Numbered from the stretch's first letter, positions 1 to 18,161 are shown. The stretch is 18,161 nucleotides of DNA from an uncultured archaeon (GCA_964595665.1 CAZQQS010000011.1:1-18161), one strand, 5' to 3'. A program made the numbers and translations. The notes: generated from the sequence alone by a model not told the origin.

Positions 1-3000
1 TTTTATATTTCAAAAATTCTTTTTCATCAAAAACAAATTTTAAATTCAAATTTTCTTTTGGTTTTATTATTGATTCTTCCTGTATAAAAAAATTATTCAT
101 AGAATCTATTTTGAAAATATCATACAAATCTTTTTTAGTAGAATCTCTTAAAGAATATTCTCCATCATAAATATTTATATCAAAAGGAGAATTATTCTTT
201 ATTTCTGTAATTGATTTTATTGCATCAGAATCTTTTGGAGAATACAACTCGATTTCTATATTACTTTTATCTAAAAAATCATATTTAGATATAAACTTAT
301 GAACGGCTATTTTATGATTAGGAACATCGTAAACAATTTTAATTTCATCATCTATTTTTAAAGCTTCAATATCTAAAACTACTAAACCATTAGAAATAGG
401 TTTTTCTTGCCTATATTCCCAAGTTCCATTTTTTAATTTATAATATTTAGCAATTCCAGAGTTTACAGGGTAACCCTCAAAATCATTTATATTAATTGCC
501 AATTTATTTTTTACAAAAGGGATTAATTTACCTACACCATTATTAATAGAATAATATTCTTCATTATAAATTATATCTAATGGAGAAGTATTCAAAGATT
601 CCAAATCTCTTGGAACTATTATAGCATCTGAAAACAAATCATAAATCCCAAAATTCAATTTAGTTTTAGTATCAGTTGCCAAACTATAATTAAAATCCAT
701 TTCCAAATAATTTGATTTTAAAATATCTAAATCATAAATATATACTGGACCTTCAGATAACTTTTTAGATCTATTAACAGATAATCCCTCTAAAGATAAA
801 TTCCCATTAGAAACATAAAAATCAAATGTTTTAATATCTTCTAATTTATTTATTTTTTCGTTTAACCCAGAATTATAAAAAGCAAATTTAGATTTAGAAT
901 CATATTTGTATTCTACTTTAGCTACTAAATTACCTGAATTTGGAACTTCTATAATATTAGGAACTAAAATATTATCTTGATAAACTTCAACACATAATTG
1001 TTCTTTACATTCTTGACCGTATTTATAAGTTACTGTTTTTAAATACCCAAAATCATTCAAATTAAAATTATAATTTAATAATAACTTATCATCTTTAACT
1101 GCATTTTGAGTCACAGAAATTTTAATTACATAAATCATTTCTACATCTTGTGTTGCTGAGTTAAAATTAAAAATATTTGAAAAACTTTTACTTTTATAAA
1201 ATAAATCCTTATCCAAATTAGAAACTATTTTATTATCTCCTTTAAAAAAATTATTTTTCAAATAATTATCATATAAAACTTCATCCCCCAAACCATAAAC
1301 ATTTCTAACAAGCACTTTAGAATTCACAAAATTCTCATCTTTTAAATCCCCTAAAACACCATAAAAATATAATTTATTTGTAGAAACAAAACTTTCTTTT
1401 GGAACAAAAACCTTAAAAGCGGCATAATAATCTGAATTTTCTAATTTAGAAACTCTATCAGTTTTATTTAACTCTTTACTATTATAAATACCTAAAAATT
1501 CAGAATCTAAATTAGAAATTTTGTTTTTAGAAACACTTTGTGTTAATTCAAAATCTAATTTTAATCGTTCATTTTTATTAATAAAAAAATCTTGAGAATA
1601 AAAATCTCTATAACCTTCTTTTGTGATTTTAAAATAAACATTACTCAATAATTTAGCTTCTACAACAATACAATTTGTTTTATTTAAAAAATAACTACTT
1701 ATAAAATCATTGTTTTCCGTATATAATTCTATAAATGCATCATTTAAATCAATTAATTCATTATTTTTCGTTTCATGTAAACAAACATCAATAACATGTG
1801 AATCCCATTTAACATTAACTTTAACATTTTGAACATTATACTCCAAACCTAAAGATCCTTGTACTGAAAAATTAGAACTCCCACCTAAATAAGGGTGATT
1901 TACTTTTACAATATAATTTCCTTTGAATATTTTTCTAGAAACTGAACCATTAAAATCAGTTTCCAAAATACCTATATTATGCATCATATTTGCTGTTAAA
2001 GAACTTCCTTTATATTCTTCAAAATAAACCTCAATATTAGGAATTGGTTTATTAGTTGTACTATCAATTACTTGAACATTTATAATATCATAATCAAAAG
2101 GAGTGCATTTTTTTATTTCTATTGTCTTTTCTATTGACTCTTCAAACTCAAATTCATAATCTAAAGCATCAAATTCATCACTATATTCTGAATTTAATTG
2201 TACAGATAATTTATATTTTCCTAATCCTTTAATTCCAAATTCAACTTTTGAATTACTATCAAAAGATTTCTGAGAAATAACCATATTGTTTTCATCTTTT
2301 AAATAAATTGACCCAGAAACAAAATTATTATCTTCAACATCAAAATCTACTTTAACTAAACCTAAATTAGGCAAATCTAAAATAAAATATTCTTGAATAT
2401 TTGAACCAGCAGTTATTTTTATATTTTTAGATTGCACAGCATATTTATTTTCTAAGTCATTTATGGTTATTACATAATCTCCTTCTAATAATTCAAACTC
2501 GTAATTGCCAAAATCTTTTGTCAAACCCTTATCAATTAATTTCTGAGTAGCATTATCTTCTCTAACACTTACCTCTATATTTCTAGCAGGTAAATTATCA
2601 ATATAATTTACATATACTAATAATTTATTTTTACTCACATTTTCAGGAATTGAAGGAGTATCTATTGGAGTATCCAATAATATCTTACATAATCCTGAGC
2701 CACAAGTTTGAGTTTTTGTTGGCAAACCTTCAACAATTACTTTAGCACTTACCACATCACAAGGAATAATTATATTTTCTAAAATCCCATCAACAATATT
2801 ATATTCTTGAGAATAATCTTCACAAGATAAATTTATTAACCCAGTTCTTTGTAATAATGAATTTCCAGAATATAATGAAAATGAATAAGTTTTATTAACA
2901 ATTTTTTTAACAGGATCATCAGAAGAAATTTCTAAATCAACCCTTATAATCTTTTCATTTGTTTTTATTCTCTTTTCAAATGTTTCACTATTATAAATTA

Positions 3001-3382
3001 TTTTTGCAGTCAAATATTTGTTTGGGACATACTTAAAAACTCCATTAATTATTTCAACATCATCACTTAAACTAATTCGGGCATTAACTAATTTATTATT
3101 CACATAAACATTAATAATATATTCTTGTTCTGGCGAATAAAAAATAAAAAATAATATCAATCCAATAATAATTAAAAATAAAATAATAAACAAAATTAAA
3201 GATGGGAAATATTTATCTATTTTATCAACAACAAATCCCAATTTAATCTTTCTCATAAACTCTTTATAAGAATTATTTATTTTCGTAAAAATATTTTCTT
3301 TTTTTACTTCTTTAGAATCATCTTTTTTAGGTATATTTAATTGCTTTATTTGAGAATCATCAAAATTAAAACTATCTTCCAT
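1..3382 (-). CDS. Large membrane-anchored surface protein, N-terminal 1127 aa only (C-terminus lies beyond the left window edge). Paralogue of the N-terminal part of the adjacent giant protein.
   Basis: Manual codon-by-codon translation of the minus strand. ATG is at 3382-3380 and there is no in-frame stop down to position 2. An in-frame TGA at 3400-3398 bounds the ORF upstream. The N-terminus MEDSFNFDDSQIKQLNIPKKDDSKEVKKEN...KIDKYFPSLILFIILFLIIIGLILFFIFYSPEQE is a cytoplasmic tail plus one TM helix. The remainder is beta-rich with CarboxypepD_reg/PEGA-like signatures (NIEVSVREDNATQKLIDKGLTKDFGNYEFELLEGDYVITI; INVQVIDSTTNKPIPNIEVYFEE...GNYIVKVNHPYLGG). GTGATC, complementary to the 16S 3' end, lies 3 nt upstream of the ATG. 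The gene starts 8 nt after the upstream gene's TAG. It is missing from the supplied ORF track, presumably because it has no in-window stop. Confidence 0.85.
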   Translation of the reverse strand, partial: MEDSFNFDDSQIKQLNIPKKDDSKEVKKENIFTKINNSYKEFMRKIKLGFVVDKIDKYFPSLILFIILFLIIIGLILFFIFYSPEQEYIINVYVNNKLVNARISLSDDVEIINGVFKYVPNKYLTAKIIYNSETFEKRIKTNEKIIRVDLEISSDDPVKKIVNKTYSFSLYSGNSLLQRTGLINLSCEDYSQEYNIVDGILENIIIPCDVVSAKVIVEGLPTKTQTCGSGLCKILLDTPIDTPSIPENVSKNKLLVYVNYIDNLPARNIEVSVREDNATQKLIDKGLTKDFGNYEFELLEGDYVITINDLENKYAVQSKNIKITAGSNIQEYFILDLPNLGLVKVDFDVEDNNFVSGSIYLKDENNMVISQKSFDSNSKVEFGIKGLGKYKLSVQLNSEYSDEFDALDYEFEFEESIEKTIEIKKCTPFDYDIINVQVIDSTTNKPIPNIEVYFEEYKGSSLTANMMHNIGILETDFNGSVSRKIFKGNYIVKVNHPYLGGSSNFSVQGSLGLEYNVQNVKVNVKWDSHVIDVCLHETKNNELIDLNDAFIELYTENNDFISSYFLNKTNCIVVEAKLLSNVYFKITKEGYRDFYSQDFFINKNERLKLDFELTQSVSKNKISNLDSEFLGIYNSKELNKTDRVSKLENSDYYAAFKVFVPKESFVSTNKLYFYGVLGDLKDENFVNSKVLVRNVYGLGDEVLYDNYLKNNFFKGDNKIVSNLDKDLFYKSKSFSNIFNFNSATQDVEMIYVIKISVTQNAVKDDKLLLNYNFNLNDFGYLKTVTYKYGQECKEQLCVEVYQDNILVPNIIEVPNSGNLVAKVEYKYDSKSKFAFYNSGLNEKINKLEDIKTFDFYVSNGNLSLEGLSVNRSKKLSEGPVYIYDLDILKSNYLEMDFNYSLATDTKTKLNFGIYDLFSDAIIVPRDLESLNTSPLDIIYNEEYYSINNGVGKLIPFVKNKLAININDFEGYPVNSGIAKYYKLKNGTWEYRQEKPISNGLVVLDIEALKIDDEIKIVYDVPNHKIAVHKFISKYDFLDKSNIEIELYSPKDSDAIKSITEIKNNSPFDINIYDGEYSLRDSTKKDLYDIFKIDSMNNFFIQEESIIKPKENLNLKFVFDEKEFLKYK

Positions 3383-3390
3383 ATTGATCA

Positions 3391-10920
<7,530 letters not shown>

Positions 10921-11061
10921 AAAAATCCCAATCAATACAATATATTAATAATGTATTATAGAATAAATACTAAAAGTATATAAACATTTTCGGATTTTTC
11001 CTTTATTTTTGTTATGTAGTATGCCCAAATCCTTTATAAACAGAAATAGAGTTTTTTTATT
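10921..11061. promoter_or_regulatory. Divergent intergenic promoter region for the giant gene (minus) and the beta-CASP nuclease gene (plus), with archaeal TATA boxes placed for leaderless transcripts.
   Basis: TTTATAAA at 11033-11040 ends 22 nt before ATG 11062. On the other strand TTAATATA (plus-strand tatattaa, 10941-10948) lies 21 nt before ATG 10920. An archaeal TSS normally lies ~25 nt downstream of the TATA centre, so transcripts would start at or next to the ATG. Confidence 0.5.
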
Positions 11062-12042
11062 ATGTTAAATTTACGATATGGTTCAAATATCTTAGGAAAC
11101 TATTTTGATACAGATTTTTCAATAGATTCTATACGAAAAAACAGCTCTATAGGGTTTATAACTCATGCCCATAAAGACCATATTACTTCAAATTATGTTA
11201 ATGACGTGTTATTAACCCAAGCAACCTTAGATATTATGAAGGTTTATGGAATAACTCCAAAATCAAAAACTTTAGAATATAATAAAAAATATAAATTAGA
11301 TGATTTGGAATACAAAATAATTAATTCGGGACATGTTTTAGGCAGTTATAGTTTAATTTTAGAATATAATGGTACAAAAATAAATATTACGAGTGATATT
11401 AATACTTTGCCCACAACAGTTACAAAAGAAACTAAAATTGAAGATTGTGATATTTTAATTATTGAAAGTACATATGGCTCACAAAAAGATATTTTCCCAG
11501 ACAAAGATAAAGAATATAAAAAACTATTAAACTGGTTAACCTTAAATAAGATTAATAATCGATTACCAATAATTGGAGCATATCCTTTAGGGAAAACACA
11601 AGAATTAGTTAAATTAATTTCTGACAATACAAATTATAATATTGGATTAACAAATGATGCTTACGACATTTGTGATGTCTATAAAAATCACAATATTAAA
11701 ATGAAAAATTATTTTAAAATAAATGGCAATTTAAATGATTTAGATTTATTAATTTTAAATCCATCAAAAATAAATAAAACATTTATTAACGCATTATCAA
11801 TTACAAGTAAAAAAAATTTAGCATTTGCAACTACTTCTGGAATGAGTTTTAATGTTGGAGAAAAATTTAATATTTCTAATCATTGTGATATAAATCATTT
11901 ATTAGAATATGTTGAAGAAAGTAATGCAAAAACAATTTACACTTATCATGGAAAAGAAAAAGAATTATCTGATACTATTAATACAAAATTACACAAATTT
12001 TCTAAACCTTTGAAAGATGTAAAAAAGATAGAGATTATATAG
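11062..12042 (+). CDS. Small metallo-beta-lactamase-fold / beta-CASP family nuclease (aCPSF/SNM1-like RNA- or DNA-processing enzyme).
   Basis: Motifs read from the 326-aa track protein: HxHxDH (ITHAHKDHI), SGHVLGS (motif 3 His), IIESTYG (beta-CASP motif A acidic residue), ISNHCD (motif B His), TYHGKE (motif C His). A leaderless-type TATA lies 22 nt upstream. The stop is TAG. Confidence 0.75.
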   Translation: MLNLRYGSNILGNYFDTDFSIDSIRKNSSIGFITHAHKDHITSNYVNDVLLTQATLDIMKVYGITPKSKTLEYNKKYKLDDLEYKIINSGHVLGSYSLILEYNGTKINITSDINTLPTTVTKETKIEDCDILIIESTYGSQKDIFPDKDKEYKKLLNWLTLNKINNRLPIIGAYPLGKTQELVKLISDNTNYNIGLTNDAYDICDVYKNHNIKMKNYFKINGNLNDLDLLILNPSKINKTFINALSITSKKNLAFATTSGMSFNVGEKFNISNHCDINHLLEYVEESNAKTIYTYHGKEKELSDTINTKLHKFSKPLKDVKKIEII

Positions 12043-12088
12043 GAATAAATATATACTCTCTGTTGGATATTATATAATAGGGATTTTC

Positions 12089-13117
12089 ATGGGTTTTATC
12101 AAAGGACAATACATACCTTCAGCAGAAGAATTAATAGATAATGCATTTCAAAAAGCAAGAACTACAGCATCTAAAATAGATGAAAGAAATGTTGAAAAAT
12201 TAGTTGTTTCTAAAGAAAAAGAAAGAGTTAAAATTACTGCTGAAGAGCTAACTGGAAAATTAAAAACTATTGTAAACCATTTTCCAAATATTAATGAATT
12301 AAACCCTTTATACAAAGCATTATTAAAAAATTCTATAAATATTATAGAATTAAAAAAAGCTTTGGGACATATTACAAGTTCATCACAAACTATAGATAAT
12401 ATTAAAGCAAAAACTTTAATGAATATGGCACATTCAAATAGATTACAAATTTCAAAAAATAGAAATGAATTTTATGGTCGAGTAGTGTCAGTAGTTAAAA
12501 GATGTAAGGGCTCATTAAATATAATTAAAAATGCATTAAAAGAAATTGCAAATATTCCTAAAATAAAGGACTTACCAACTATTTTATTAGTTGGTTTACC
12601 TAATACTGGAAAAAGTACTTTTTTAAAAACAATTACTGATGCAAATGTAGAAATACAAAACTATTCTTTTACTACTAAAAGATTACAAGTTGGAAAATTA
12701 AAAGTAAAATTCTTAGATTTTCAAATTTTAGATTCTCCTGGTTTATTGGATAGACCTGTTGAAAAACAAAATACAATCGAAAAACAAACTACAATTGCAT
12801 TAAAAACCGTTGCCAGTTCTATAATATTTATTTTAGATGCAAATCAAGATGTTAATGCACAAAAAAACATTTTAAAAAAATACAAACCGTTATTAAAAAA
12901 TTTGCCAGCAATAATAATTATTAATAAAATTGATTTATTAGATGAAATTGAATTAGAAGAATTTAATGCAGAAATAAAACAAATAATTAAAAAACAAAAA
13001 ATTTACTTAACTTGCTTATTAGATTCAGATACTAAATTAATAGATGAAATAAAAAATGATATTTATAATTTAAATAAAAATTGGTATGTAAAAAAAGGCC
13101 AAGAAAGAATAAAGTAA
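12089..13117 (+). CDS. NOG1-family (Obg-related) GTP-binding protein, archaeal/eukaryal type.
   Basis: The N-terminal helical region (IPSAEELIDNAFQKARTTA) is typical of the NOG1 N-domain. G1 is GLPNTGKST, G3 is DSPGLLDR, G4 is NKIDL. The 342-aa length fits archaeal Nog1 homologues. Confidence 0.8.
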   Translation: MGFIKGQYIPSAEELIDNAFQKARTTASKIDERNVEKLVVSKEKERVKITAEELTGKLKTIVNHFPNINELNPLYKALLKNSINIIELKKALGHITSSSQTIDNIKAKTLMNMAHSNRLQISKNRNEFYGRVVSVVKRCKGSLNIIKNALKEIANIPKIKDLPTILLVGLPNTGKSTFLKTITDANVEIQNYSFTTKRLQVGKLKVKFLDFQILDSPGLLDRPVEKQNTIEKQTTIALKTVASSIIFILDANQDVNAQKNILKKYKPLLKNLPAIIIINKIDLLDEIELEEFNAEIKQIIKKQKIYLTCLLDSDTKLIDEIKNDIYNLNKNWYVKKGQERIK

Positions 13118-13228: not shown

Positions 13229-13251
13229 CAAAGAATAAAAATAGAAAACTA
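13229..13251 (-). terminator. Oligo-T-rich tract immediately downstream of the ATPase stop, a candidate archaeal terminator.
   Basis: The minus strand after TAA reads TAGTTTTCTATTTTTATTCTTTG. Archaeal termination typically uses T-runs. Confidence 0.3.
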
Positions 13252-14601
13252 TTATTTTTTAATTACCCCTAAAACTCTATTTGTATAATCATCTAATAAA
13301 AACATAGTTAAAGGAATTTTATTCTCAAAAAATGCTTTTTTAGTTAAAATAATGGCATCCTTTCTATTTGAATCTTTAGATTTAACTTCTAAATTTAATA
13401 TTTTATCATTATGATTAATTACAAAATCAATTTCTTTTCCTTTTTTAGGACTAAAAAAATAAAATTTATTTTTATAATCTATTGTATCACTTAAATCTAT
13501 AAAATTTTGCCAAATATGACTTGCAAAAACATTCTCTTTTATTTTCCCCATAAATTCATCATCAGATATTAATTTCAAACTCTTTTGAAACATATTTATT
13601 TCCCCATAAACCCATTTATAAATTGCAAAATAAAAAAAAGAATCTATAAAGTAAATTTTCTTCATTTTCTTTGTGTTTATAATCCCATCTTCAGAATTGT
13701 AAATAAATAAATTTAAAAAAGATCTTTCAAAAACATCAACATATTCTTTAACAGTATGATGTGAAACGTCTGCATATTGTGTTAAAGTAGACCAAGAAAT
13801 CTTTGAAGATAAAGTCTCAATTATTTTTCTTAAAATTGTTTTACCAGTATTCGCCTTAAAACTATATTTCTCAATGTCTCCTAAAACCCACTTTATATAA
13901 ATGTCATAGATGTTATCATCAATAAATCCAGTTTCTAAATAATTATTTATTACAAAAGGTAATCCCCCAGTTAAAATATATTCTTCAAATTTTGCATTTA
14001 TTAAATCTATATTTGATAAAATATATTCTTTAGTTAAAACAATTTCTGGAAATAATAAATTATAATATTCCTCAAAAGTCATTGGTTTTGCAATAATTCT
14101 TCGCCCATTGCCAGTCCTACCAGGCATAGTTTCATATTCATAACGCATATCCAAAGTATTTGAACCAGTTAAAATAACAATTTTATTTCTAAATAACCCT
14201 AAATCTGAAATGCTTTTTATTAATTTGCTCCAATTTTCAACATAAGATATTTCATCTATAAAAACATATTTAGTAAATTTATTTAATTCTAAAAATCTAA
14301 TTAAGCATTGTTCTAATTCTTTATTTAATAAATTGGTAGCATTTATATACAAAATATTATTCAAATCTTCATTATTTGATAACTCCAATATTTTCTGCTT
14401 AATAGCTGTTGTTTTACCAACTTGTCTAGGACCCCGTAAAATATATACTCCATCTTTTAAATCATTGAACCAATCAACTTTTCTAATAAACTTTACATTT
14501 TTTAATTTAATTAAATCTGGATCATTATTAGGATAATCAATACTCCACCAAGGATTAAAATTAAATAAAAATCTAATACTCTCATCTAAATTTGGAACCA
14601 T
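13252..14601 (-). CDS. COG1373-type AAA+ ATPase (AAA_14 N-domain) with a C-terminal DUF4143 / PD-(D/E)xK nuclease-like domain.
   Basis: Walker A is RGPRQVGKTT and Walker B is YVFIDEISYVENW. The C-terminal KEIDFVINHNDKILNLEVKSKD matches the D...ExK restriction-endonuclease-like motif characteristic of DUF4143. A family-typical ending (KIPLTMFLL) is followed by an extra DDYTNRVLGVIKK tail. ATG is at 14601, with a palindromic TTTATAAA 22 nt upstream. Confidence 0.8.
   Translation of the reverse strand: MVPNLDESIRFLFNFNPWWSIDYPNNDPDLIKLKNVKFIRKVDWFNDLKDGVYILRGPRQVGKTTAIKQKILELSNNEDLNNILYINATNLLNKELEQCLIRFLELNKFTKYVFIDEISYVENWSKLIKSISDLGLFRNKIVILTGSNTLDMRYEYETMPGRTGNGRRIIAKPMTFEEYYNLLFPEIVLTKEYILSNIDLINAKFEEYILTGGLPFVINNYLETGFIDDNIYDIYIKWVLGDIEKYSFKANTGKTILRKIIETLSSKISWSTLTQYADVSHHTVKEYVDVFERSFLNLFIYNSEDGIINTKKMKKIYFIDSFFYFAIYKWVYGEINMFQKSLKLISDDEFMGKIKENVFASHIWQNFIDLSDTIDYKNKFYFFSPKKGKEIDFVINHNDKILNLEVKSKDSNRKDAIILTKKAFFENKIPLTMFLLDDYTNRVLGVIKK
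13255..13295 (-). repeat. Copy A of a 41-bp direct repeat, forming the 3' end of the ATPase CDS and encoding LDDYTNRVLGVIKK.
   Basis: ttttttaattacccctaaaactctatttgtataatcatcta compared with 15061-15101 ttctttaattacacctaaaactctgtttgtataatcatcta: 38/41 identical, same orientation, same reading frame. Confidence 0.85.
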
Positions 14602-14670: not shown

Positions 14671-14868
14671 TTATGGAAGTATCACTTCCAATATGGCTCT
14701 ATAAATATTATCTCTATGATCAAAATCTAAAAACAAAATAAATTTATTTTTTAAATCTACTTTAAAAGTTAAAACAAAATTCTTTCCAATGTGCACTCTT
14801 TTTCTGTCTGATAAATCATTTCTTAAATTTTTATAATGATTTATAATATCAAAATCAGAATTAAACAT
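14671..14868 (-). CDS. Short RelE/ParE-superfamily-like toxin (65 aa).
   Basis: The core RVHIGKNFVLTFKVDLKNKFILFLDFDHRDNIY parallels the RelE/ParE signature (R-x-R-v-G-d-Y-R-i-i-Y ... i-g-H-R-k-d-v-Y). The start ATG directly abuts the stop of the upstream small gene, and GTGAT lies 3 nt upstream. The N-terminal region is about 25 aa shorter than I remember for typical RelE proteins. Confidence 0.55.
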   Translation of the reverse strand: MFNSDFDIINHYKNLRNDLSDRKRVHIGKNFVLTFKVDLKNKFILFLDFDHRDNIYRAILEVILP

Positions 14869-15132
14869 CTAATCACTGGAAAATAATTTATTTAAATCGT
14901 CTTTAGACCTAGTTCTTTTCCCGTGTTTTGCTTCATGTTCTCTTTCTAATTTTAAAATTTTTTCAACATACTCATCTTTAACTACTTCATCAGCATACTC
15001 TTTACCATGCTTTTTTGCCAAATAAATCAAAGCCTGAGATTTGTCTTTTAAACCATACTTTTCTTTAATTACACCTAAAACTCTGTTTGTATAATCATCT
15101 ACATATAAATTTACATTTACACTTGCACCCAT
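14869..15132 (-). CDS. Ribbon-helix-helix (CopG-like, possibly DUF2683-type) antitoxin, 87 aa.
   Basis: The pattern is beta-strand VNVNLYV, helix DDYTNRVLGVIKEKYGL, helix KDKSQALIYLAKKHG, then a charged C-terminal tail (EREHEAKHGKRTRSKDD). It sits immediately upstream of the RelE-like gene. GTGAT lies 5 nt upstream of the ATG. The family name is from memory and unverified. Confidence 0.55.
   Translation of the reverse strand: MGASVNVNLYVDDYTNRVLGVIKEKYGLKDKSQALIYLAKKHGKEYADEVVKDEYVEKILKLEREHEAKHGKRTRSKDDLNKLFSSD
15061..15101 (-). repeat. Copy B of the 41-bp direct repeat, inside the antitoxin CDS (residues ~10-24, VDDYTNRVLGVIKE).
   Basis: See 13255-13295. The copies are 1,806 bp apart. Confidence 0.85.
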
Positions 15133-15230: not shown

Positions 15231-15279
15231 AAATAAAAATAAAAAAAAGAGAATAAAATAGGAATTTAATTCCTATTTT
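15231..15279 (-). terminator. Terminator of the 804-aa gene: perfect 11-bp hairpin overlapping the TAG stop, followed by a long oligo-T tract.
   Basis: aaaataggaat (15255-15265) / tta / attcctatttt (15269-15279) are exact reverse complements. Downstream on the minus strand comes TCTTTTTTTTTATTTTTATTTT (15250-15231). Confidence 0.65.
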
Positions 15280-17687
15280 GTTTCTGGTAAAAATACTGCG
15301 GGATTCCACCAGAATTTTATATCATAACTTCCTTCTGTATATCCAACACAAACTTTTTCTGTTTTTACTAACTCATAAATATCTTCTAAATCGCTAATTT
15401 TAGATTTATATGTAGAATCTAATTGTAAATTCTGAGATCCGTTTCTGAATTTAATACTGTCAAATAATTTAGCATCTCCACTTGAAGTTACAATATTCAT
15501 TGAACCTGTTGCTTCTTCTGGCATATAAACTAAACCAACATATCTAACTTTCTCAGTATCTCTTATTATAGAATCTTTATCCCAATACAAACCATAAGCA
15601 ATGCTTTGGAATTGTCCTATTGGCACTTTAGAATTTGTACCATAAATATCAGATCTACCAATTTCATCTAAAGTACTTGAACCATCAAAAGATTTACAAT
15701 CAAAGCCATCTGCACAAACTAAAGTCCAATCTATAAAACTATTACCAGCTGTTCTTGGACTTCCAGCAATATTTATTGTGTAAAATGCGAATGCATCTCC
15801 AGCTTTAGTATGATTTAATTCTAAACCAACAGGCGCAGGATAAGACATATATCGTTTTACATCATATGATACGCCTACAGCACTTGCTCTTGGACTTATT
15901 TGTAATAATAAACCTTTGTTAAAACCATTTAAAGATTCAATACTACTATCAACACTCATGTTTAAACTTACTATAGGAGTAGAACTAGATCTTAAACTTG
16001 GCTCTAATAACATAGGATTATTTGTTTCGTTCTTAAACCAAATTGCATCTCCTTTGTAATCTACACCATAACCTATTCTTTCAATTACTCCATTTTTAAC
16101 ACCCATAGTTGCATCTAAAGGCATATAGTAAACTGGATTATTATCTTCGCTTATTAATTCTAAATAAATAGTTATTTTCTCTACATTTGAATTTACACTA
16201 TTATTTAGATATATTTGTTTTTCTTTTATTTCATCAACATAAGTTATTGCAACAGTTACATTATACAATCCAGCTTTTTCTAATTTATAACCTTCATTAT
16301 TCATTGCAGAATAACTTAAAGGTTTAAACTCAATTTTATTTTGAGAATATAAATCAGTTATTATTGCTTTTGCATGTTTTCCAAAACCTAAGAATGTTGT
16401 ATTTAATGCATAATCTACAAAATCATTAAAGAAATCTTTTGTATAACCATCTTTCATTAAATATGCTTTAAAATTTAATTCCTCATAAGCAATTTTAGAT
16501 TTTGTATCAGTAGCATTAAAATCTAAACTGCTTTTTGTATTTTGAGAAATACTCTTTAAACTATCATTTAATGTACTTTCAGTAAATAAATTAATTAAAG
16601 CCATATTGAATTGTAGAGAATCACAATAAATATAATTGTTATCAGAATTACATTTTTCTAACCAATATGTATCATATGCCCAGTTATATTCTACTTTTGG
16701 GGCATATTCTAATCCAGTTGCACCTCTTAAACCATTTGCACCAAAACAATTATAATTTGGTATATTAATTACTTGTTCTTCTTGTGACAAATTCTTAAAT
16801 AATAATACAAATGCATCTTTACCCTGTACTTGTGCTTCTTCAACATCTCTTTCAACATATTCTTTCGAAACATTATTATCTAATTCTGCCAACCTAGTTT
16901 TATCCTCAACTTTACACCAACCTAACCTTCTAGTTGATTCTTTACCTAAAGTCATGGCTTCAACAGTTTGCATAGTTGTATCTGCATTATCAGTTAAAGT
17001 TTTTGCAATTGGAGTCTTACCAACATATTCTGGCAAACCTTTTACATCAAAACTTAAAACAAAATGTTCTACCGCATCAATATTATCTACATTAGGATCT
17101 ATAGCTATAGGATAATAAACAACATATTTATCATTTGATTTTCTTACAAAGTTTTTATCAGACATTAAATCAACATCAATTTTAGTAGATGGTGAAACAT
17201 CCCCTTGCGATTTAAATTTAGGTTCATAAATACTTGCTGAATTTACATCCAAAGTTTTTACCCTTACAGAAATTAATCTTTGCAAAGTAGCTAAAGTATC
17301 ATTTTTTCCTATAGTTGCCAAACCACCAATAAAAGTAGTTAAGAAATTAGTTAAACCACCAACAATAGCACCAACACCTGGACCAAAAAATCCACCTATT
17401 AATGCACCTGCATTACCTAATCCATTACCCCATTTCGCACCCGCTTGTGCTCCTGGAGATTCTCCAGAAGCAAATTGTTGTAATTTATCTCCCAAGAAAT
17501 AAGATGCACTCACAATTCCAGTTGTCAAAGCAATCTTACCTTGTGGTGTTGACGAATCAAACAAACTCCCCACACCCTCTTTAAGAGAATTAACAATATC
17601 GCCAATCCCCGCATGTGCAAACGGCATTGTAAACAACAATGCAAATATCAAAAACATTTTTCCAAATAATATATTTTTTTCATTCAT
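15273..17687 (-). CDS. Secreted ~804-aa protein. Order: Sec signal peptide, amphipathic Gly-rich N-terminus, glycine-zipper hydrophobic segment, conserved C-terminal domain paralogous to the giant protein's C-terminal module.
   Basis: Track ORF 15273..17702 starts at a TTG. The first ATG is at 17687 (MNEKNILFGKMFLIFALLFTMPFAHA|GIGD) and is preceded by GGATGTGAT with a 4-nt spacer. Motifs shared with the giant protein: YLMKDGYTxDFxNDFV, YYMPLD...(I/V)GYG...KG, PKV(E/D)YNW...YCD, and a cysteine in I(E/Q)D(I/V)...K(V/Y)C. A 33-nt patch is 32/33 identical at DNA level (16432-16464 vs 4391-4423). Confidence 0.9.
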   Translation of the reverse strand: MNEKNILFGKMFLIFALLFTMPFAHAGIGDIVNSLKEGVGSLFDSSTPQGKIALTTGIVSASYFLGDKLQQFASGESPGAQAGAKWGNGLGNAGALIGGFFGPGVGAIVGGLTNFLTTFIGGLATIGKNDTLATLQRLISVRVKTLDVNSASIYEPKFKSQGDVSPSTKIDVDLMSDKNFVRKSNDKYVVYYPIAIDPNVDNIDAVEHFVLSFDVKGLPEYVGKTPIAKTLTDNADTTMQTVEAMTLGKESTRRLGWCKVEDKTRLAELDNNVSKEYVERDVEEAQVQGKDAFVLLFKNLSQEEQVINIPNYNCFGANGLRGATGLEYAPKVEYNWAYDTYWLEKCNSDNNYIYCDSLQFNMALINLFTESTLNDSLKSISQNTKSSLDFNATDTKSKIAYEELNFKAYLMKDGYTKDFFNDFVDYALNTTFLGFGKHAKAIITDLYSQNKIEFKPLSYSAMNNEGYKLEKAGLYNVTVAITYVDEIKEKQIYLNNSVNSNVEKITIYLELISEDNNPVYYMPLDATMGVKNGVIERIGYGVDYKGDAIWFKNETNNPMLLEPSLRSSSTPIVSLNMSVDSSIESLNGFNKGLLLQISPRASAVGVSYDVKRYMSYPAPVGLELNHTKAGDAFAFYTINIAGSPRTAGNSFIDWTLVCADGFDCKSFDGSSTLDEIGRSDIYGTNSKVPIGQFQSIAYGLYWDKDSIIRDTEKVRYVGLVYMPEEATGSMNIVTSSGDAKLFDSIKFRNGSQNLQLDSTYKSKISDLEDIYELVKTEKVCVGYTEGSYDIKFWWNPAVFLPETK
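17307..17447 (-). other. Glycine-zipper hydrophobic segment of the 804-aa protein.
   Basis: AGAKWGNGLGNAGALIGGFFGPGVGAIVGGLTNFLTTFIGGLATIG. Five glycines fall at i, i+4, i+8, i+12, i+16 (GALIGGFFGPGVGAIVG). Confidence 0.7.
17610..17687 (-). other. Sec-type signal peptide with an AHA cleavage motif.
   Basis: MNEKNILFGK (n-region with Lys), MFLIFALLFTMPF (h-region), AHA then G (AxA rule). Confidence 0.6.
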
Positions 17688-17779
17688 ATTAATCACATCC
17701 AATTTGGGGAATAAACATTTAAATTCTTATTTTTAAATTTTTTAATAATACACATCACATCACCATAAAAATAAAAATA

Positions 17780-18161
17780 TTAATTAATCCTAAACATACC
17801 TTCAGAAAGTAACTTACTTTCTCTACCGCTATTATTTAACGTAAAACTCCCTGAGTTATCTTTTGTATATGGTTTACCTGTTAAATCAAAATATCCTGCA
17901 TTCCCGACATTCGGCTGATATATTGGCACATTATCAGAAGTTAATCCAACAAAATTATAAGTTGTACCCTTCAAAATAAATGACTTACCATTATTATTTA
18001 TGGTTGCACAATTAGCAGTAACACATTCTAACTTTTTAGTATTAAAATAATTATTAAAATTTAGACTAGTAGCAGGAGCAGCAGCAGGAGCAGGAGCAGG
18101 AGCAGCAGCAGGAGCAGCAGCAGGAGCAGCAGCAGGAGCAGCAGCAGGAGCAGCAGCAGGA
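17780..18161 (-). CDS. C-terminal 127 aa of a protein whose N-terminus lies beyond the right window edge: a (PAAA)n Pro/Ala linker followed by a ~95-aa domain of unknown function.
   Basis: The track ORF 17780..17974 starts at a TTG. I extended the same frame by hand and it stays open to 18161: ...PAAAPAAAPAAAPAAAPAPAPAAAPATSLNFNNYFNTKKLECVTANCATINNNGKSFILKGTTYNF...MFRIN*. The stop is TAA at 17780-17782. Confidence 0.75.
   Translation of the reverse strand, partial: PAAAPAAAPAAAPAAAPAAAPAPAPAAAPATSLNFNNYFNTKKLECVTANCATINNNGKSFILKGTTYNFVGLTSDNVPIYQPNVGNAGYFDLTGKPYTKDNSGSFTLNNSGRESKLLSEGMFRIN
18071..18161 (-). repeat. Coding tandem repeat (units gcagcagcagga and gcagga) encoding the PAAA/PA linker. 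It continues past the window edge.
   Basis: Read directly. It is strikingly GC-rich against the AT-rich background. Confidence 0.85.

Follow-up and report, generated by a model that had tools for sequence, protein, structure and literature searches.

A paralogous head domain in fused and apparently split giant surface proteins of Iainarchaeota-type DPANN archaea

In this study, we describe an 18,161-bp stretch of DNA (hereafter the window) from an uncultured, very AT-rich archaeon; in it, the genes neighbouring the large surface-protein genes are cellular housekeeping genes. The gene of an 804-aa protein lies on the minus strand at 15273..17687, with its ATG at 17687 and its stop codon at 15273-15275, and is preceded by a 95-nt AT-rich spacer. 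Its product is identical to the database protein P0001, which has orthologues of 66% (P0002) and 59% (P0003) identity. An earlier note on this DNA had put the start at TTG 17702; the database protein begins at ATG 17687 instead, and the longer 809-aa version is the same ORF. Residues 1-26 (MNEKNILFGKMFLIFALLFTMPFAHA; 17610..17687, minus strand) form a predicted Sec-type signal peptide with cleavage between AHA and the following G, a heuristic assignment in which the hydrophobic segment has a KD of 2.05 (Kyte-Doolittle mean hydrophobicity in a 19-residue window). That the protein has a signal peptide of its own, as the earlier note held, is plausible, and the layout of a K/R-rich start, a hydrophobic core and a small-x-small site recurs in 24/24 split members of the family inspected by heuristic pattern reading. 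The predicted mature protein begins with a glycine-zipper region, zipper 2 (aa 27-130; 17298..17609, minus strand), in which the series G99xxxG103xxxG107xxxG111xxxG115 can be read. This region is moderately hydrophobic (KD ~1.5), and AlphaFold2 (AF2) predicts helices at 48-64, 66-74, 78-101 and 103-127 with pLDDT <50. It is followed by a poorly conserved pre-domain with a small beta domain and a long helix (aa 131-288; 16824..17297, minus strand; AF2 pLDDT 60-87) and by the conserved head core (aa 289-804; 15276..16823, minus strand), which is delimited by profile alignment (hhalign E=4e-41), by conservation in 140 sequences and by an AF2 pLDDT of ~90.

The second complete large gene encodes a fused giant protein (3391..10920, minus strand). 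Its probable start is ATG 10920, giving 2,509 aa, and the ORF extends to TTG 10935, giving the 2,514-aa version by which giant residues are numbered here; the orthologues in L002 (2,426 aa) and L003 (P0017, 2,417 aa) share the N-terminus MG(I/F)QAKFDELMSKN. A short conserved cytoplasmic tail precedes an N-terminal transmembrane anchor at aa 35-55 (10771..10833, minus strand; KD 3.67), and a segment of KD ~3 occurs at aa ~25-80 in nearly all full-length members of the family. The stalk that follows (aa 56-1540; 6316..10770, minus strand) is built of beta-sandwich repeats including CarboxypepD_reg-like domains; Pfam detects PF13620 (CarboxypepD_reg) at aa 235-314 (E=1.8e-9; 38.3 bits, cutoff 32.3), a feature of the stalk only, as the 804-aa protein gives no match to this model. 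Between stalk and head lies a Gly/Ala-rich hydrophobic hinge (aa 1541-1664; 5944..6315, minus strand), in which an Ala/Thr low-complexity loop separates two hydrophobic stretches at ~1556-1578 and 1637-1660 (KD 1.59 and 3.13). In the orthologues of the giant the hinge is a segment of 57-58 aa with two helices and a PVGG/PVAG turn, and in our alignment A1 the hinge of the giant is aligned to the zipper of the 804-aa protein. A pre-domain of mostly low model confidence (aa 1665-1869; 5329..5943, minus strand; AF2 pLDDT mostly <60) then leads to the conserved head core (aa 1870-2514; 3394..5328, minus strand; AF2 pLDDT 80-95). Just 8 nt past the stop codon of the giant starts a third giant surface-protein gene, of which the N-terminal 1,127 codons are present before the contig end cuts it (2..3382, minus strand); its product has an N-terminal transmembrane segment (KD 3.66), a weak CarboxypepD_reg match and similarity to the stalks (E=6e-8).

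The 804-aa protein is a paralogue of the C-terminal end of the giant, as the earlier note had proposed by eye, and all of the similarity blocks it listed exist and are statistically significant. In a formal pairwise comparison, BLASTP was significant for two main blocks: aa 409-603 of the 804/809-aa ORF against aa 2167-2353 of the 2,514-aa ORF (33% identity, E=3e-19), which spans the YLMKDGY, YYMPLD...GYG and SLN.S blocks, and aa 297-365 against aa 1873-1944 (E=2e-5), which contains the TG..PKV.YNW...YCD..Q block. Profile-profile comparison of the two orthologue groups by hhalign gave a probability of 100% and E=4e-41 over 465 aligned columns, from aa 289-802 of the 804-aa protein and aa 1870-2514 of the giant, and also aligned the C-terminal block (IEDIYELVKTEKVCVG / IQDVFDGIAEKKYCIS). 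At the DNA level, the identity of 32/33 nt between 4391-4423 and 16432-16464 (minus strand), within the sequence for the YLMKDGYT.DF motif, is real; the best 33-mer in 30 codon-shuffled controls reached 24-28. Two details of the original description need to be corrected. The shared region does not begin at giant residue ~1900, since the conserved core starts at ~1870 and the giant carries an extra beta-sandwich insert of ~200 aa (aa ~1950-2160, nt 4456-5088) between the YCDATQ and YLMKDGY blocks, an insert that is also found in the 967-aa split module P0004. Moreover, the zipper does not directly precede the domain: 160-205 poorly conserved residues, the two pre-domains, lie between, and these gave no hhalign alignment to each other.

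It is clear that both proteins belong to a much larger family. A scan with a profile built from the shared blocks, as the earlier note had suggested, recovered at least 621 clusters at 50% identity (E<=1e-3, exhaustive profile search), 319 of them with E<=1e-30. The profile was built here from alignments A1 and A2 and is without a database name; the A1 profile scores the 804-aa protein at 1,386 bits and the giant at 834 bits, so that both proteins of the window are members. The head domain always ends 15-30 aa before the C-terminus and is mostly found in proteins of 2,200-3,250 aa with an N-terminal transmembrane segment. Among species-representative genomes there are 16 head-domain loci, all in archaeal MAGs, 8/16 of which are named as Iainarchaeum-type; this is a large, undescribed family of tiny DPANN (Iainarchaeota-type) archaea. 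It is defined by a core of ~520 aa located at the very C-terminal end, in which the motifs C..G..G.TG...P.V.Y.W, YCDATQ, YLMKDGY..DF..DF and YYMP(L/F)D..G....R.GYG occur together with four invariant cysteines. Between relatives whose flanking housekeeping genes are 84-86% identical the heads are 59-67% identical, and tandem paralogues are just 20-25% identical, a fast divergence as is typical of surface proteins.

The split nature of the module is best seen in the related loci. Of the best 150 among the 621 clusters, 93 have the module in fused form and 24 have it in split form. In every related locus that has upstream DNA (L001/L004, L002, L003, L007, L008, L018), the split module stands directly behind a gene for a stalk of 1,516-1,863 aa; the two genes are 8 nt apart in L002, overlap by 4 nt in L003 and are separated by ~145 nt in L001. 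These upstream stalk proteins are homologous to the N-terminal ~1,300 aa of the giant; the giant stalk matches the separate stalks L1_1516, L2_1602 and L3_1758 over ~1,000-1,300 aa (E 1e-14 to 2e-35). L002 and L003 are syntenic with the window, with the NOG1 gene, a 326-aa gene and an antitoxin gene 81-95% identical, and in both a stalk gene (1,602 and 1,758 aa, respectively) takes the position of an ORF that is cut by the end of our contig. Of the latter ORF, the C-terminal 126 codons are visible (17783..18160, minus strand), the open frame leaves the window, and the product, presumed to be a stalk tail, consists of PAAAP tandem repeats and a ~95-aa tail with two cysteines. Separate stalk proteins end in a W...Gly-rich helix, tandem low-complexity repeats and a small Cys-rich domain, a layout of repeats plus small domain that the fragment resembles. 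In sequence, the fragment does not significantly resemble other stalk tails (best E=0.05), and its assignment as a stalk tail is based on synteny and layout. In the giant and in the syntenic and related loci, the head is preceded by a stalk that is anchored at its N-terminus and has 1,400 aa or more; beside the 804-aa gene these 126 codons are the part that can be seen. In L019, the orthologous stalk and head form a single ORF, in which the end of the stalk is followed by zipper 1, a Cys-rich piece, a G/T/S linker, zipper 2 and the head; Cys-rich mini-domains are found in such linkers as well as in the stalk tails, in keeping with an extracellular location. The adjacency of the stalk genes, the synteny and the single ORF of L019 point to the upstream stalk, and not to the 2,514-aa giant, as the natural partner of the 804-aa protein. 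The earlier note was therefore right that the unit exists both fused to a huge stalk and separately with a signal peptide, but the 804-aa protein does not appear to stand alone. Very probably it represents the head half, with a presumed export of its own, of a second giant surface protein whose gene has been split in two, and given the adjacency in the split loci and the fusion in L019 the locus would hold stalk-plus-head paralogues of which one is fused and one is split. By comparison of these loci, the split seems to fall in a hypervariable linker between two glycine-rich helices.

A short metagenomic contig such as the window could in principle contain an artefact or a pseudogene, in which a frameshift or an assembly error had broken one giant gene. 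We regard this as practically discounted, since the identical split is present with intact reading frames in the independent assemblies L002 and L003, a canonical signal peptide is present in all 24 split clusters inspected and the 95-nt spacer precedes the 804-aa gene. Together these observations effectively refute an artefactual split.

A paralogous module in fused and split form is by itself ordinary gene fission. Because the two forms coexist, the covalent link between stalk and head must be dispensable, and this is all that the recurrent fission shows. The earlier note had gone further in taking the 804-aa protein for a separately secreted paralogue and in raising the possibility that the giant is cleaved at or before the zipper in the style of viral glycoprotein precursors. 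In such a model, the 804-aa protein would be independent, cleavage of the giant would yield a receptor-binding part and a membrane-active part, and the zipper would serve as a fusion peptide or a membrane anchor. The coexistence of fused and split forms of zipper plus head and the strongly hydrophobic hinge of the giant (KD 3.13) fit such cleavage, and an archaeal precedent exists in the tetrabrachion of Staphylothermus, a surface-protein precursor that is cut into two chains which remain associated. Nevertheless, we consider this reading quite unlikely. The 804-aa protein is very probably encoded by the second gene of a stalk-plus-head pair and would hence not be independent, an unsystematic look at the hinge revealed no conserved cleavage motif, and the hydrophobicity of the hinge varies across the family rather than being conserved. 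The viral analogy fares no better: Foldseek against PDB chains and BFVD viral models gave no match at E<=1e-3, which speaks against a fusion-protein fold; the head module was not found in IMG/VR contigs; PHROG has no match for the 804-aa protein or the shared domain; and the gene neighbours are housekeeping genes. Flavivirus E (class II fusion) chains appeared in Foldseek at a probability of 0.01-0.04, E=0.1-0.5 and an rmsd of ~30 A. The sole PHROG match concerns the low-complexity zipper of the giant and is probably spurious.

The head domain has no relative in Pfam, NCBIfam, PHROG, the PDB sequence set or viral structures. AF2 confidently models the core (pLDDT ~90), with an N-terminal part of alpha/beta type and C-terminal parts that resemble beta-sandwiches or jelly rolls, and the only structural neighbours of the heads, all weak, are pilins, lectins and Ig-like domains. 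Across 140 sequences the invariant or nearly invariant residues are C314, G322, T324, G325, P330, W336, C355, D356, Q359, D413, D418, D422, G473, Y520, P523, R537, Y540, G541, N587, W654, C664, D680, C780 and N795. The four invariant cysteines suggest a disulfide-bonded extracellular domain. There is no invariant His, Ser, Glu or Lys in this set, and the head seems to be without a catalytic signature; its invariant Asp, Arg, Asn and Gln could still make up an active site. Indeed, the strictly invariant polar residues D356, Q359, D413, D418, D422, R537, N587, D680 and N795 would be in keeping with a head that attacks or remodels the envelope of a host cell as an enzyme or as a membrane- or lipid-active effector. 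It might hydrolyse glycans or lipids, or form pores together with the glycine zippers, and the stalk would only deliver it. Glycine-zipper helices are membrane-active elements of some toxins, and the insert of the giant has weak neighbours resembling the ML domain (lipid-binding MD-1/NPC2; probability 0.5-0.75, E=0.05-0.1). These ML-like matches are non-significant, however, and the searches linked the head to no family of hydrolases or pore formers, either by sequence or by fold, which together with the lack of invariant His, Ser, Glu and Lys makes an effector head rather improbable.

A structural function in the cell envelope must also be weighed, that is, an S-layer or S-layer-like coat in which the split form would be a two-component lattice of a membrane-anchored stalk and a canopy or head, as in SlaB/SlaA of Sulfolobales. 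Archaeal S-layer proteins, too, typically have a membrane anchor, long arrays of beta-sandwiches and a conserved terminal domain; the present family is widespread within its lineage; and in g-type giants the hydrophobic two-helix hairpin would tie the junction of stalk and head to the membrane. Such a coat seems unlikely all the same, for two to three highly divergent tandem paralogues (20-25% identity) per locus are unusual for a lattice-former, Pfam and NCBIfam reveal no S-layer signature, and proteins of 2,200-3,250 aa are larger than any S-layer protein known to us.

The explanation that we prefer is that the window stems from a DPANN archaeon of the Iainarchaeota type and that its locus encodes a cluster of paralogous giant cell-surface proteins with one common plan: a short cytoplasmic tail and a single N-terminal membrane anchor; an extracellular stalk of ~1,400 aa made of beta-sandwich domains; a hinge in which a hypervariable low-complexity linker connects two helical segments, glycine-rich or hydrophobic, called zipper 1 and zipper 2; and a C-terminal head of ~650-850 aa with its ~520-aa core and four invariant cysteines. 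The 2,514-aa protein would be the fused form and the 804-aa protein the head half of a second copy split inside the linker, whose stalk half, retaining zipper 1 and the tail, would be cut off at the right end of the window. The head half would have acquired a cleavable Sec signal peptide, such that the mature protein starts with zipper 2, and the separately exported halves may reassemble on the cell surface, probably by packing of the two glycine-zipper segments, with GxxxG-mediated contacts between helices that lie within or at the membrane. Such an assembly would act as an adhesin-like device, and its head would bind a ligand presented by a partner cell or a surface. We infer this binding role from the position of the head, its invariant cysteines and its lack of catalytic-type invariant residues, and a membrane-anchored adhesin-like stalk with a disulfide-bonded binding head is the most likely role on sequence grounds. 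Taken as a whole, this explanation is probable, a judgement that blends two parts. It is highly probable that the 804-aa protein and the giant are, respectively, the head of a split stalk-plus-head pair and a fused paralogue, both in a DPANN surface-protein family; the adhesin-like binding role and the reassembly through zippers may or may not hold, in equal measure.

The zippers as an interface between stalk and head are conjecture, because both their hydrophobicity (maximal KD from 0.7 to 3.0 across the family) and their GxxxG density (strong in about one third of the zipper segments only) vary and the Pfam glycine-zipper families (PF05433 and related) gave no significant match. The best hit, for zipper 1 of L019 alone, had E=0.38 and reached 11.1 bits where the cutoff is 24.2; both zippers of the window matched nothing in these models. 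As regards their placement, the zippers may be a membrane hairpin, single-pass helices or elements outside the membrane. It is very unlikely, in our opinion, that zipper plus head, placed at the tip or the base of the 1,400-aa stalk, serve as a membrane-active device for contact with a host, in which the zipper helices would insert into the host membrane or that of the cell itself while the head holds the envelope of the partner. If it were, the proteins would be part of the DPANN machinery for attaching to hosts and opening connections, the head would establish a new fold class among proteins for contact or fusion between cells, and the split and fused forms would be two-subunit and single-chain versions of one machine.

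Irrespective of its role, a large family of giant surface proteins is now defined, with a conserved head that AlphaFold folds confidently and that has no known relative. The site of fission, at which the protein evidently tolerates being cut, offers a natural domain boundary for expression of the head alone, from ~aa 27 or aa 131 to aa 804, and the pairing of the upstream stalk with the 804-aa head is open to test.

An attached life on other cells is assumed for DPANN archaea, and to our knowledge their contact proteins are almost unknown outside Nanohaloarchaeota. There, the SPEARE proteins are giant, membrane-anchored extracellular proteins with a proposed function in host-cell contact (PMC10266531; Hamm et al. 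2019 as cited there). They comprise 5,000-9,400 aa, with an N-terminal Sec signal peptide and a C-terminal transmembrane segment followed by a cytoplasmic VirB4/TraG-like ATPase (PMC10266531). The family described here resembles SPEARE proteins in that both are surface proteins of very large size, dominated by Ig-like or beta-sandwich repeats, from DPANN archaea that are small and putatively host-associated. It differs in its size of 2,200-3,250 aa, in its N-terminal anchor and in a different, undescribed end domain; Pfam finds no ATPase domain in the giant, which has only 2,514 aa, or in the 804-aa protein, and neither is of the SPEARE type.

Large ectodomains followed by a hydrophobic segment, in fused or two-subunit form, are also the general idea of viral fusion precursors and fusexins (HAP2/Fsx1), and the likeness goes no further. 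No fold match or viral homologues were found, and the order of domains differs from that of fusion proteins, with the hinge upstream of the conserved domain and the main anchor at the N-terminus. With Glycine zipper 2TM proteins (PF05433, SlyB/Pcp-type), families that form a membrane-inserted, self-associating hairpin, the zippers have in common that GxxxG repeats follow one another in one or two helices of moderate hydrophobicity. PF05433-type proteins are small bacterial outer-membrane lipoproteins, whereas the zippers described here lie between the stalk and head of archaeal giants and vary widely in hydrophobicity.

The combination of a membrane-anchored stalk and a second large extracellular component is known from SlaA/SlaB of Sulfolobales and from the heavy and light chains of tetrabrachion. 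The slaAB genes are adjacent, and tetrabrachion is made as one precursor that is later cleaved. In contrast to the coiled-coil stalks with C-terminal anchors of SlaB and tetrabrachion, the stalk here is a beta-sandwich array with an N-terminal anchor, and similarity to SlaA/SlaB or tetrabrachion was detected neither in sequence nor in fold. Bacterial fibrillar adhesins differ from the present family in that the latter is archaeal, uses an N-terminal transmembrane anchor instead of sortase, T1SS or T5SS export, and has a glycine-zipper hinge and a head domain without known relative. Still, the family shares with fibrillar adhesins the overall logic of anchor, long stalk of beta-sandwiches (CarboxypepD_reg/prealbumin-like) and conserved distal domain, as well as fast divergence and tandem paralogues, and the weak structural neighbours of the family are pilins and lectins.

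In this analysis, we conclude that the 804-aa protein encoded at 15273-17687 (-) is probably the head half of a split giant surface protein whose stalk partner would be cut short by the contig end, and that the 2,514-aa giant at 3391-10935 (-) would be a fused paralogue of such a split stalk and head pair. These conclusions are drawn from the genomic context of the orthologues, in which a stalk gene lies upstream, from synteny, from a related locus with both parts fused in one ORF, and from the layout of the stalk tail. According to the database record, the window (18,161 bp; G+C 22-32%) is the entire contig bearing the 804-aa protein (P0001). From the right end, its minus strand carries an ORF fragment of 126 codons that runs off the contig (17783-18160), the 804-aa gene, a DUF2683-like 87-aa small gene (14869-15132) with a truncated 65-aa toxin ORF (14671-14868), an AAA_14/DUF4143 ATPase gene (13252-14601), the giant, and, cut by the left contig end (2-3382), the opening 1,127 codons of a third giant surface-protein gene. 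This third gene begins 8 nt beyond the stop of the 2,514-aa gene; the part of its product that can be read shows an N-terminal TM and matches CarboxypepD_reg weakly. The plus strand encodes an archaeal NOG1-type GTPase (12089-13117; NOG1_N E=1e-23) and a 326-aa metallo-beta-lactamase-like protein. ORF calling stretches the 804-aa gene and the giant to upstream TTG codons (809 aa from 17702 and 2,514 aa from 10935). The database protein and the orthologues point to ATG starts at 17687 (804 aa) and at 10920 (2,509 aa); the annotated start of the smaller gene is at 17687 and not at 17702.

The C-terminal paralogy of the two proteins, which the earlier note had proposed from alignment by eye, is significant both by pairwise alignment and by HMM-HMM comparison. 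By BLASTP, residues 409-603 of the 804/809-aa ORF match residues 2167-2353 of the giant (33% identity, E=3e-19) and residues 297-365 match 1873-1944 (E=2e-5). Comparison by hhalign of an alignment of seven orthologues of the 804-aa protein (A4) with one of five orthologues of the giant (A5) gave a probability of 100% and E=4e-41 over 465 columns, pairing residues 289-802 with 1870-2514 and taking in the C-terminal block around the invariant Cys780. Moreover, the near-identical DNA stretch common to both genes is confirmed, with 32/33 nt identical against at most 28/33 in codon-shuffled controls. Together, the two alignments and this DNA identity establish that the paralogy is real. The shared core of the giant begins near aa 1870 and not at ~1900, and although both proteins do carry a zipper and a domain, the zipper does not directly precede the domain, since a weakly conserved region of 160-205 aa intervenes. 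In the giant, an all-beta insert of ~200 aa (4456-5088 (-), aa ~1950-2160) interrupts the head core after the YCDATQ helix and before the YLMKDGY strand. Split heads of the 967-1,020-aa class (e.g. P0004) have this beta-sandwich insert, those of the 804-aa class lack it, and the structures nearest to it, at weak and non-significant similarity, are ML-type lipid-binding domains (MD-1, NPC2).

A word-indexed protein search returned as relatives of the 804-aa protein only P0002 (66% identity), P0003 (59%) and P0004 (33%), and missed the giant. The loci of these three relatives speak decisively against the earlier view of the 804-aa protein as a stand-alone one. In L002 and L003 the orthologue of the 804-aa protein follows a 1,602-aa gene (8-nt gap) and a 1,758-aa gene (4-nt overlap), respectively, and in L001 the 967-aa P0004 follows a 1,516-aa gene. 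The three upstream proteins have an N-terminal TM anchor and are homologous to the N-terminal part of the window's giant over about 1,000-1,300 aa (E 1e-14 to 2e-35). In all fetched loci in which a split module has upstream DNA (L001=L004, L002, L003, L007, L008, L018), the module lies directly behind a stalk gene encoding 1,516-1,863 aa. The window is syntenic with L002 and L003, as seen from NOG1 (84-86% identical), the 326-aa gene (85%) and the antitoxin-like small gene (81-95%), and the giant has orthologues of 2,426 and 2,417 aa there (67-70% identical). In L019 (Ca. ainarchaeum STB_43) a single ORF encodes both the orthologous stalk and the orthologous head, in the order stalk end, Trp-initiated Gly-rich helix (zipper 1), short Cys-rich piece, Gly/Thr/Ser linker, Gly-rich double helix (zipper 2), and head. 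It might be argued that the split of stalk from head is an artefact of assembly; this is effectively excluded, because the split is common to independent assemblies and each head carries a signal peptide.

The stalk finishes in the same manner when it is a separate protein, with a W...Gly-rich helix followed by tandem low-complexity repeats (PSATE, KEPDPN) and a small Cys-rich domain. The fragment at 17783-18160 (-), which consists of PAAAP repeats and ~95 aa containing two Cys, is laid out like the final two of these elements; it agrees with other stalk tails in layout alone, as no significant sequence homology to them was found (best E=0.05). It opens with a perfect (PAAA)n repeat, which forms a GC-rich island where the genome has 24% GC; stalk tails elsewhere (L007, L018) bear other tandem repeats (PSATE, KEPDPN) in this position. 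The protein is hypervariable here, and the repeats may also account for assembly breaks at that place. A further giant lies upstream of the split stalk gene in L003 (1-4722; 2,187 aa) and L002 (2-754), with stalk-like repeats and a C-terminus that does not match the head profile, so that the head domain is apparently not carried by every giant in these clusters. Between the window and L002/L003, identity is 59-67% for the head and 47-55% for the post-hinge part of the giant against 84-86% for the NOG1 and 326-aa genes. Divergence of the surface-protein genes is far more rapid than that of the genes beside them (window 11062-13117).

A small toxin-antitoxin pair lies directly downstream of the split head gene in L001 (7820-8252), L002 (8192-8735) and L003 (12673-13212), being either HicB/HicA or DUF2683-like plus ParE-like. 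L002 and L003 have a DUF2683-like gene with a 91-aa ParE/RelE-like toxin and lack the ATPase; the 65-aa toxin ORF of the window matches toxin residues 35-90. Two copies of a 46-nt direct repeat (13250-13295 and 15056-15101; 89% identical, 1,806 nt apart) fall in the 3' end of the ATPase gene (...DDYTNRVLGVIKK*) and in the 5' part of the DUF2683-like gene (...DDYTNRVLGVIKEKYG). The AAA_14/DUF4143 ATPase has the appearance of an insertion in which part of the antitoxin gene was duplicated, beside a decayed toxin.

When 1.84 billion cluster representatives were searched exhaustively with the profile, 621 proteins with the head domain were retrieved at E<=1e-3, 319 of them at E<=1e-30. Among the best 150 of the 621, the C-terminal edge of the domain always lies 15-30 residues before the protein end. 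A 140-sequence alignment drawn from these 150 holds 93 fused forms (1,900-3,250 aa, with a strong N-terminal TM) and 24 split forms (760-1,090 aa), the rest being fragments, which bears out the module and the fused-versus-split pattern described earlier. Each of the 24 short forms begins with a canonical Sec signal peptide, comprising a K/R-rich start, a hydrophobic core and a small-x-small site. In a rough neighbour-joining tree, most split forms fall in one clade adjoining that of the window's giant; the tree requires at least four fused/split changes, and L019 adds one more. The fused/split finding itself is ordinary gene fission within a fast-evolving surface-protein family. Related loci in species-representative genomes number 16, all in archaeal MAGs, half of them (8/16) named Candidatus Iainarchaeum or ainarchaeum, which places the source of the window among DPANN archaea of the Iainarchaeota type. 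Giants are often in tandem (L006, L010, L011, L013, L015, L019), one distant member lies among glycine-cleavage and lipoate genes, and the family genes are chromosomal, cellular genes. Incomplete coverage of the literature (DPANN/Iainarchaeota giant proteins, adhesins, S-layer, glycine zippers, carboxypeptidase regulatory) did not turn up a description of the family.

The 804-aa protein was modelled with AlphaFold2 from a 50-sequence alignment (mean pLDDT 78.8; about 90 across residues 310-800), and its zipper region (1-130) was helical at pLDDT below 50. A model of the giant's C-terminal 1,035 residues gave the same picture plus the beta-sandwich insert. Foldseek returned nothing at E<=1e-3 for either model in PDB or for the 804-aa model in BFVD, the top matches being pilins, lectins, TNF-like jelly rolls and Ig or ML-like domains with TM-scores <0.4. 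Pfam, NCBIfam and PHROGs gave no accepted match for the shared module, PDB sequence profiles gave chance-level matches only (AopB, aquaporin, venom proteases), and the module is absent from IMG/VR. The earlier note's analogy with viral glycoprotein precursors finds no support in the PDB/BFVD, IMG/VR and PHROG results, and proteolytic processing of the giant is likewise unsupported; that the giant is a processed, fusion-protein-like precursor is a rival reading. Two matches below the cutoff were rejected as spurious, GMT-wHTH on a short helix and pdsO on the zipper (each E=0.003). The match to phrog_342 (internal virion protein with endolysin domain; E=4.8e-5) at 5944-6315 (-), giant aa ~1548-1627, lies entirely on the low-complexity, hydrophobic Gly/Ala/Thr hinge and was also rejected, as probably a compositional artefact.

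Across the 140 sequences, four Cys (314, 355, 664, 780) are invariant, as are Gly, Pro, Trp and Tyr residues and a set of Asp, Gln, Arg and Asn, with no invariant His, Ser, Glu or Lys in the head. Such conservation fits a disulfide-stabilised extracellular binding domain better than a classical hydrolase, though the head could be an enzyme; that it is an enzymatic or membrane-active effector is a rival reading. A thioester domain was considered from the invariant YCDATQ and rejected, as its Cys and Gln are four residues apart and the motif context is unlike that of TED proteins. The Cys is more likely to form a disulfide, because a second invariant Cys lies 41 residues upstream.

The 804-aa protein has a textbook GxxxG run (G99, G103, G107, G111, G115) in helices predicted at 78-101 and 103-127. 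The giant's zipper comprises GALAGTITGTLLATGG and a very hydrophobic second stretch (Kyte-Doolittle mean 3.13, 19-residue window); in its orthologues, a 57-58-residue segment of two helices with a PVGG/PVAG turn resembles a membrane hairpin. Over the whole family, GxxxG-type motifs are over-represented in the region that lies 150-450 residues upstream of the core (score >=8 in 32% of proteins vs 3% of stalk controls), and zipper-region hydrophobicity ranges from KD 0.7 to 3.0; Pfam glycine-zipper models did not match the zippers (best E=0.38). Cys-rich mini-domains are typical of extracellular proteins. Since the linkers and tails carry such mini-domains and the split head, with its cleavable signal peptide, starts with zipper 2, each zipper would cross the membrane an even number of times, that is, zero or as a hairpin, if topology is constant across the family.

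Homology, architecture, gene pairing, the fission point and the export signals are established by these data. We infer that the N-terminal signal-anchor would export the stalk, that a separate signal peptide would export the head, and that the two halves would reassemble at the extracellular face of the cell, plausibly with zipper 1 packed against zipper 2. Split complex and single-chain giant alike would then be adhesin-like devices presenting a conserved binding head; that the giants are an S-layer component is a rival reading. What these findings bring to light is a large, uncharacterised family of DPANN surface proteins whose head is confidently folded and has no known relative, and the split point yields natural construct boundaries for experiments. 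The closest known kind are the giant membrane-anchored extracellular SPEARE proteins of DPANN archaea (Nanohaloarchaeota; PMC10266531); these have two to four times the size, their anchor is at the opposite end and they carry a VirB4-like ATPase (PMC10266531), and the family is therefore not a member of SPEARE. The anchor-stalk-tip logic is common to the family and bacterial fibrillar adhesins. Among archaea, two-chain surface assemblies have precedents in SlaA/SlaB and tetrabrachion.
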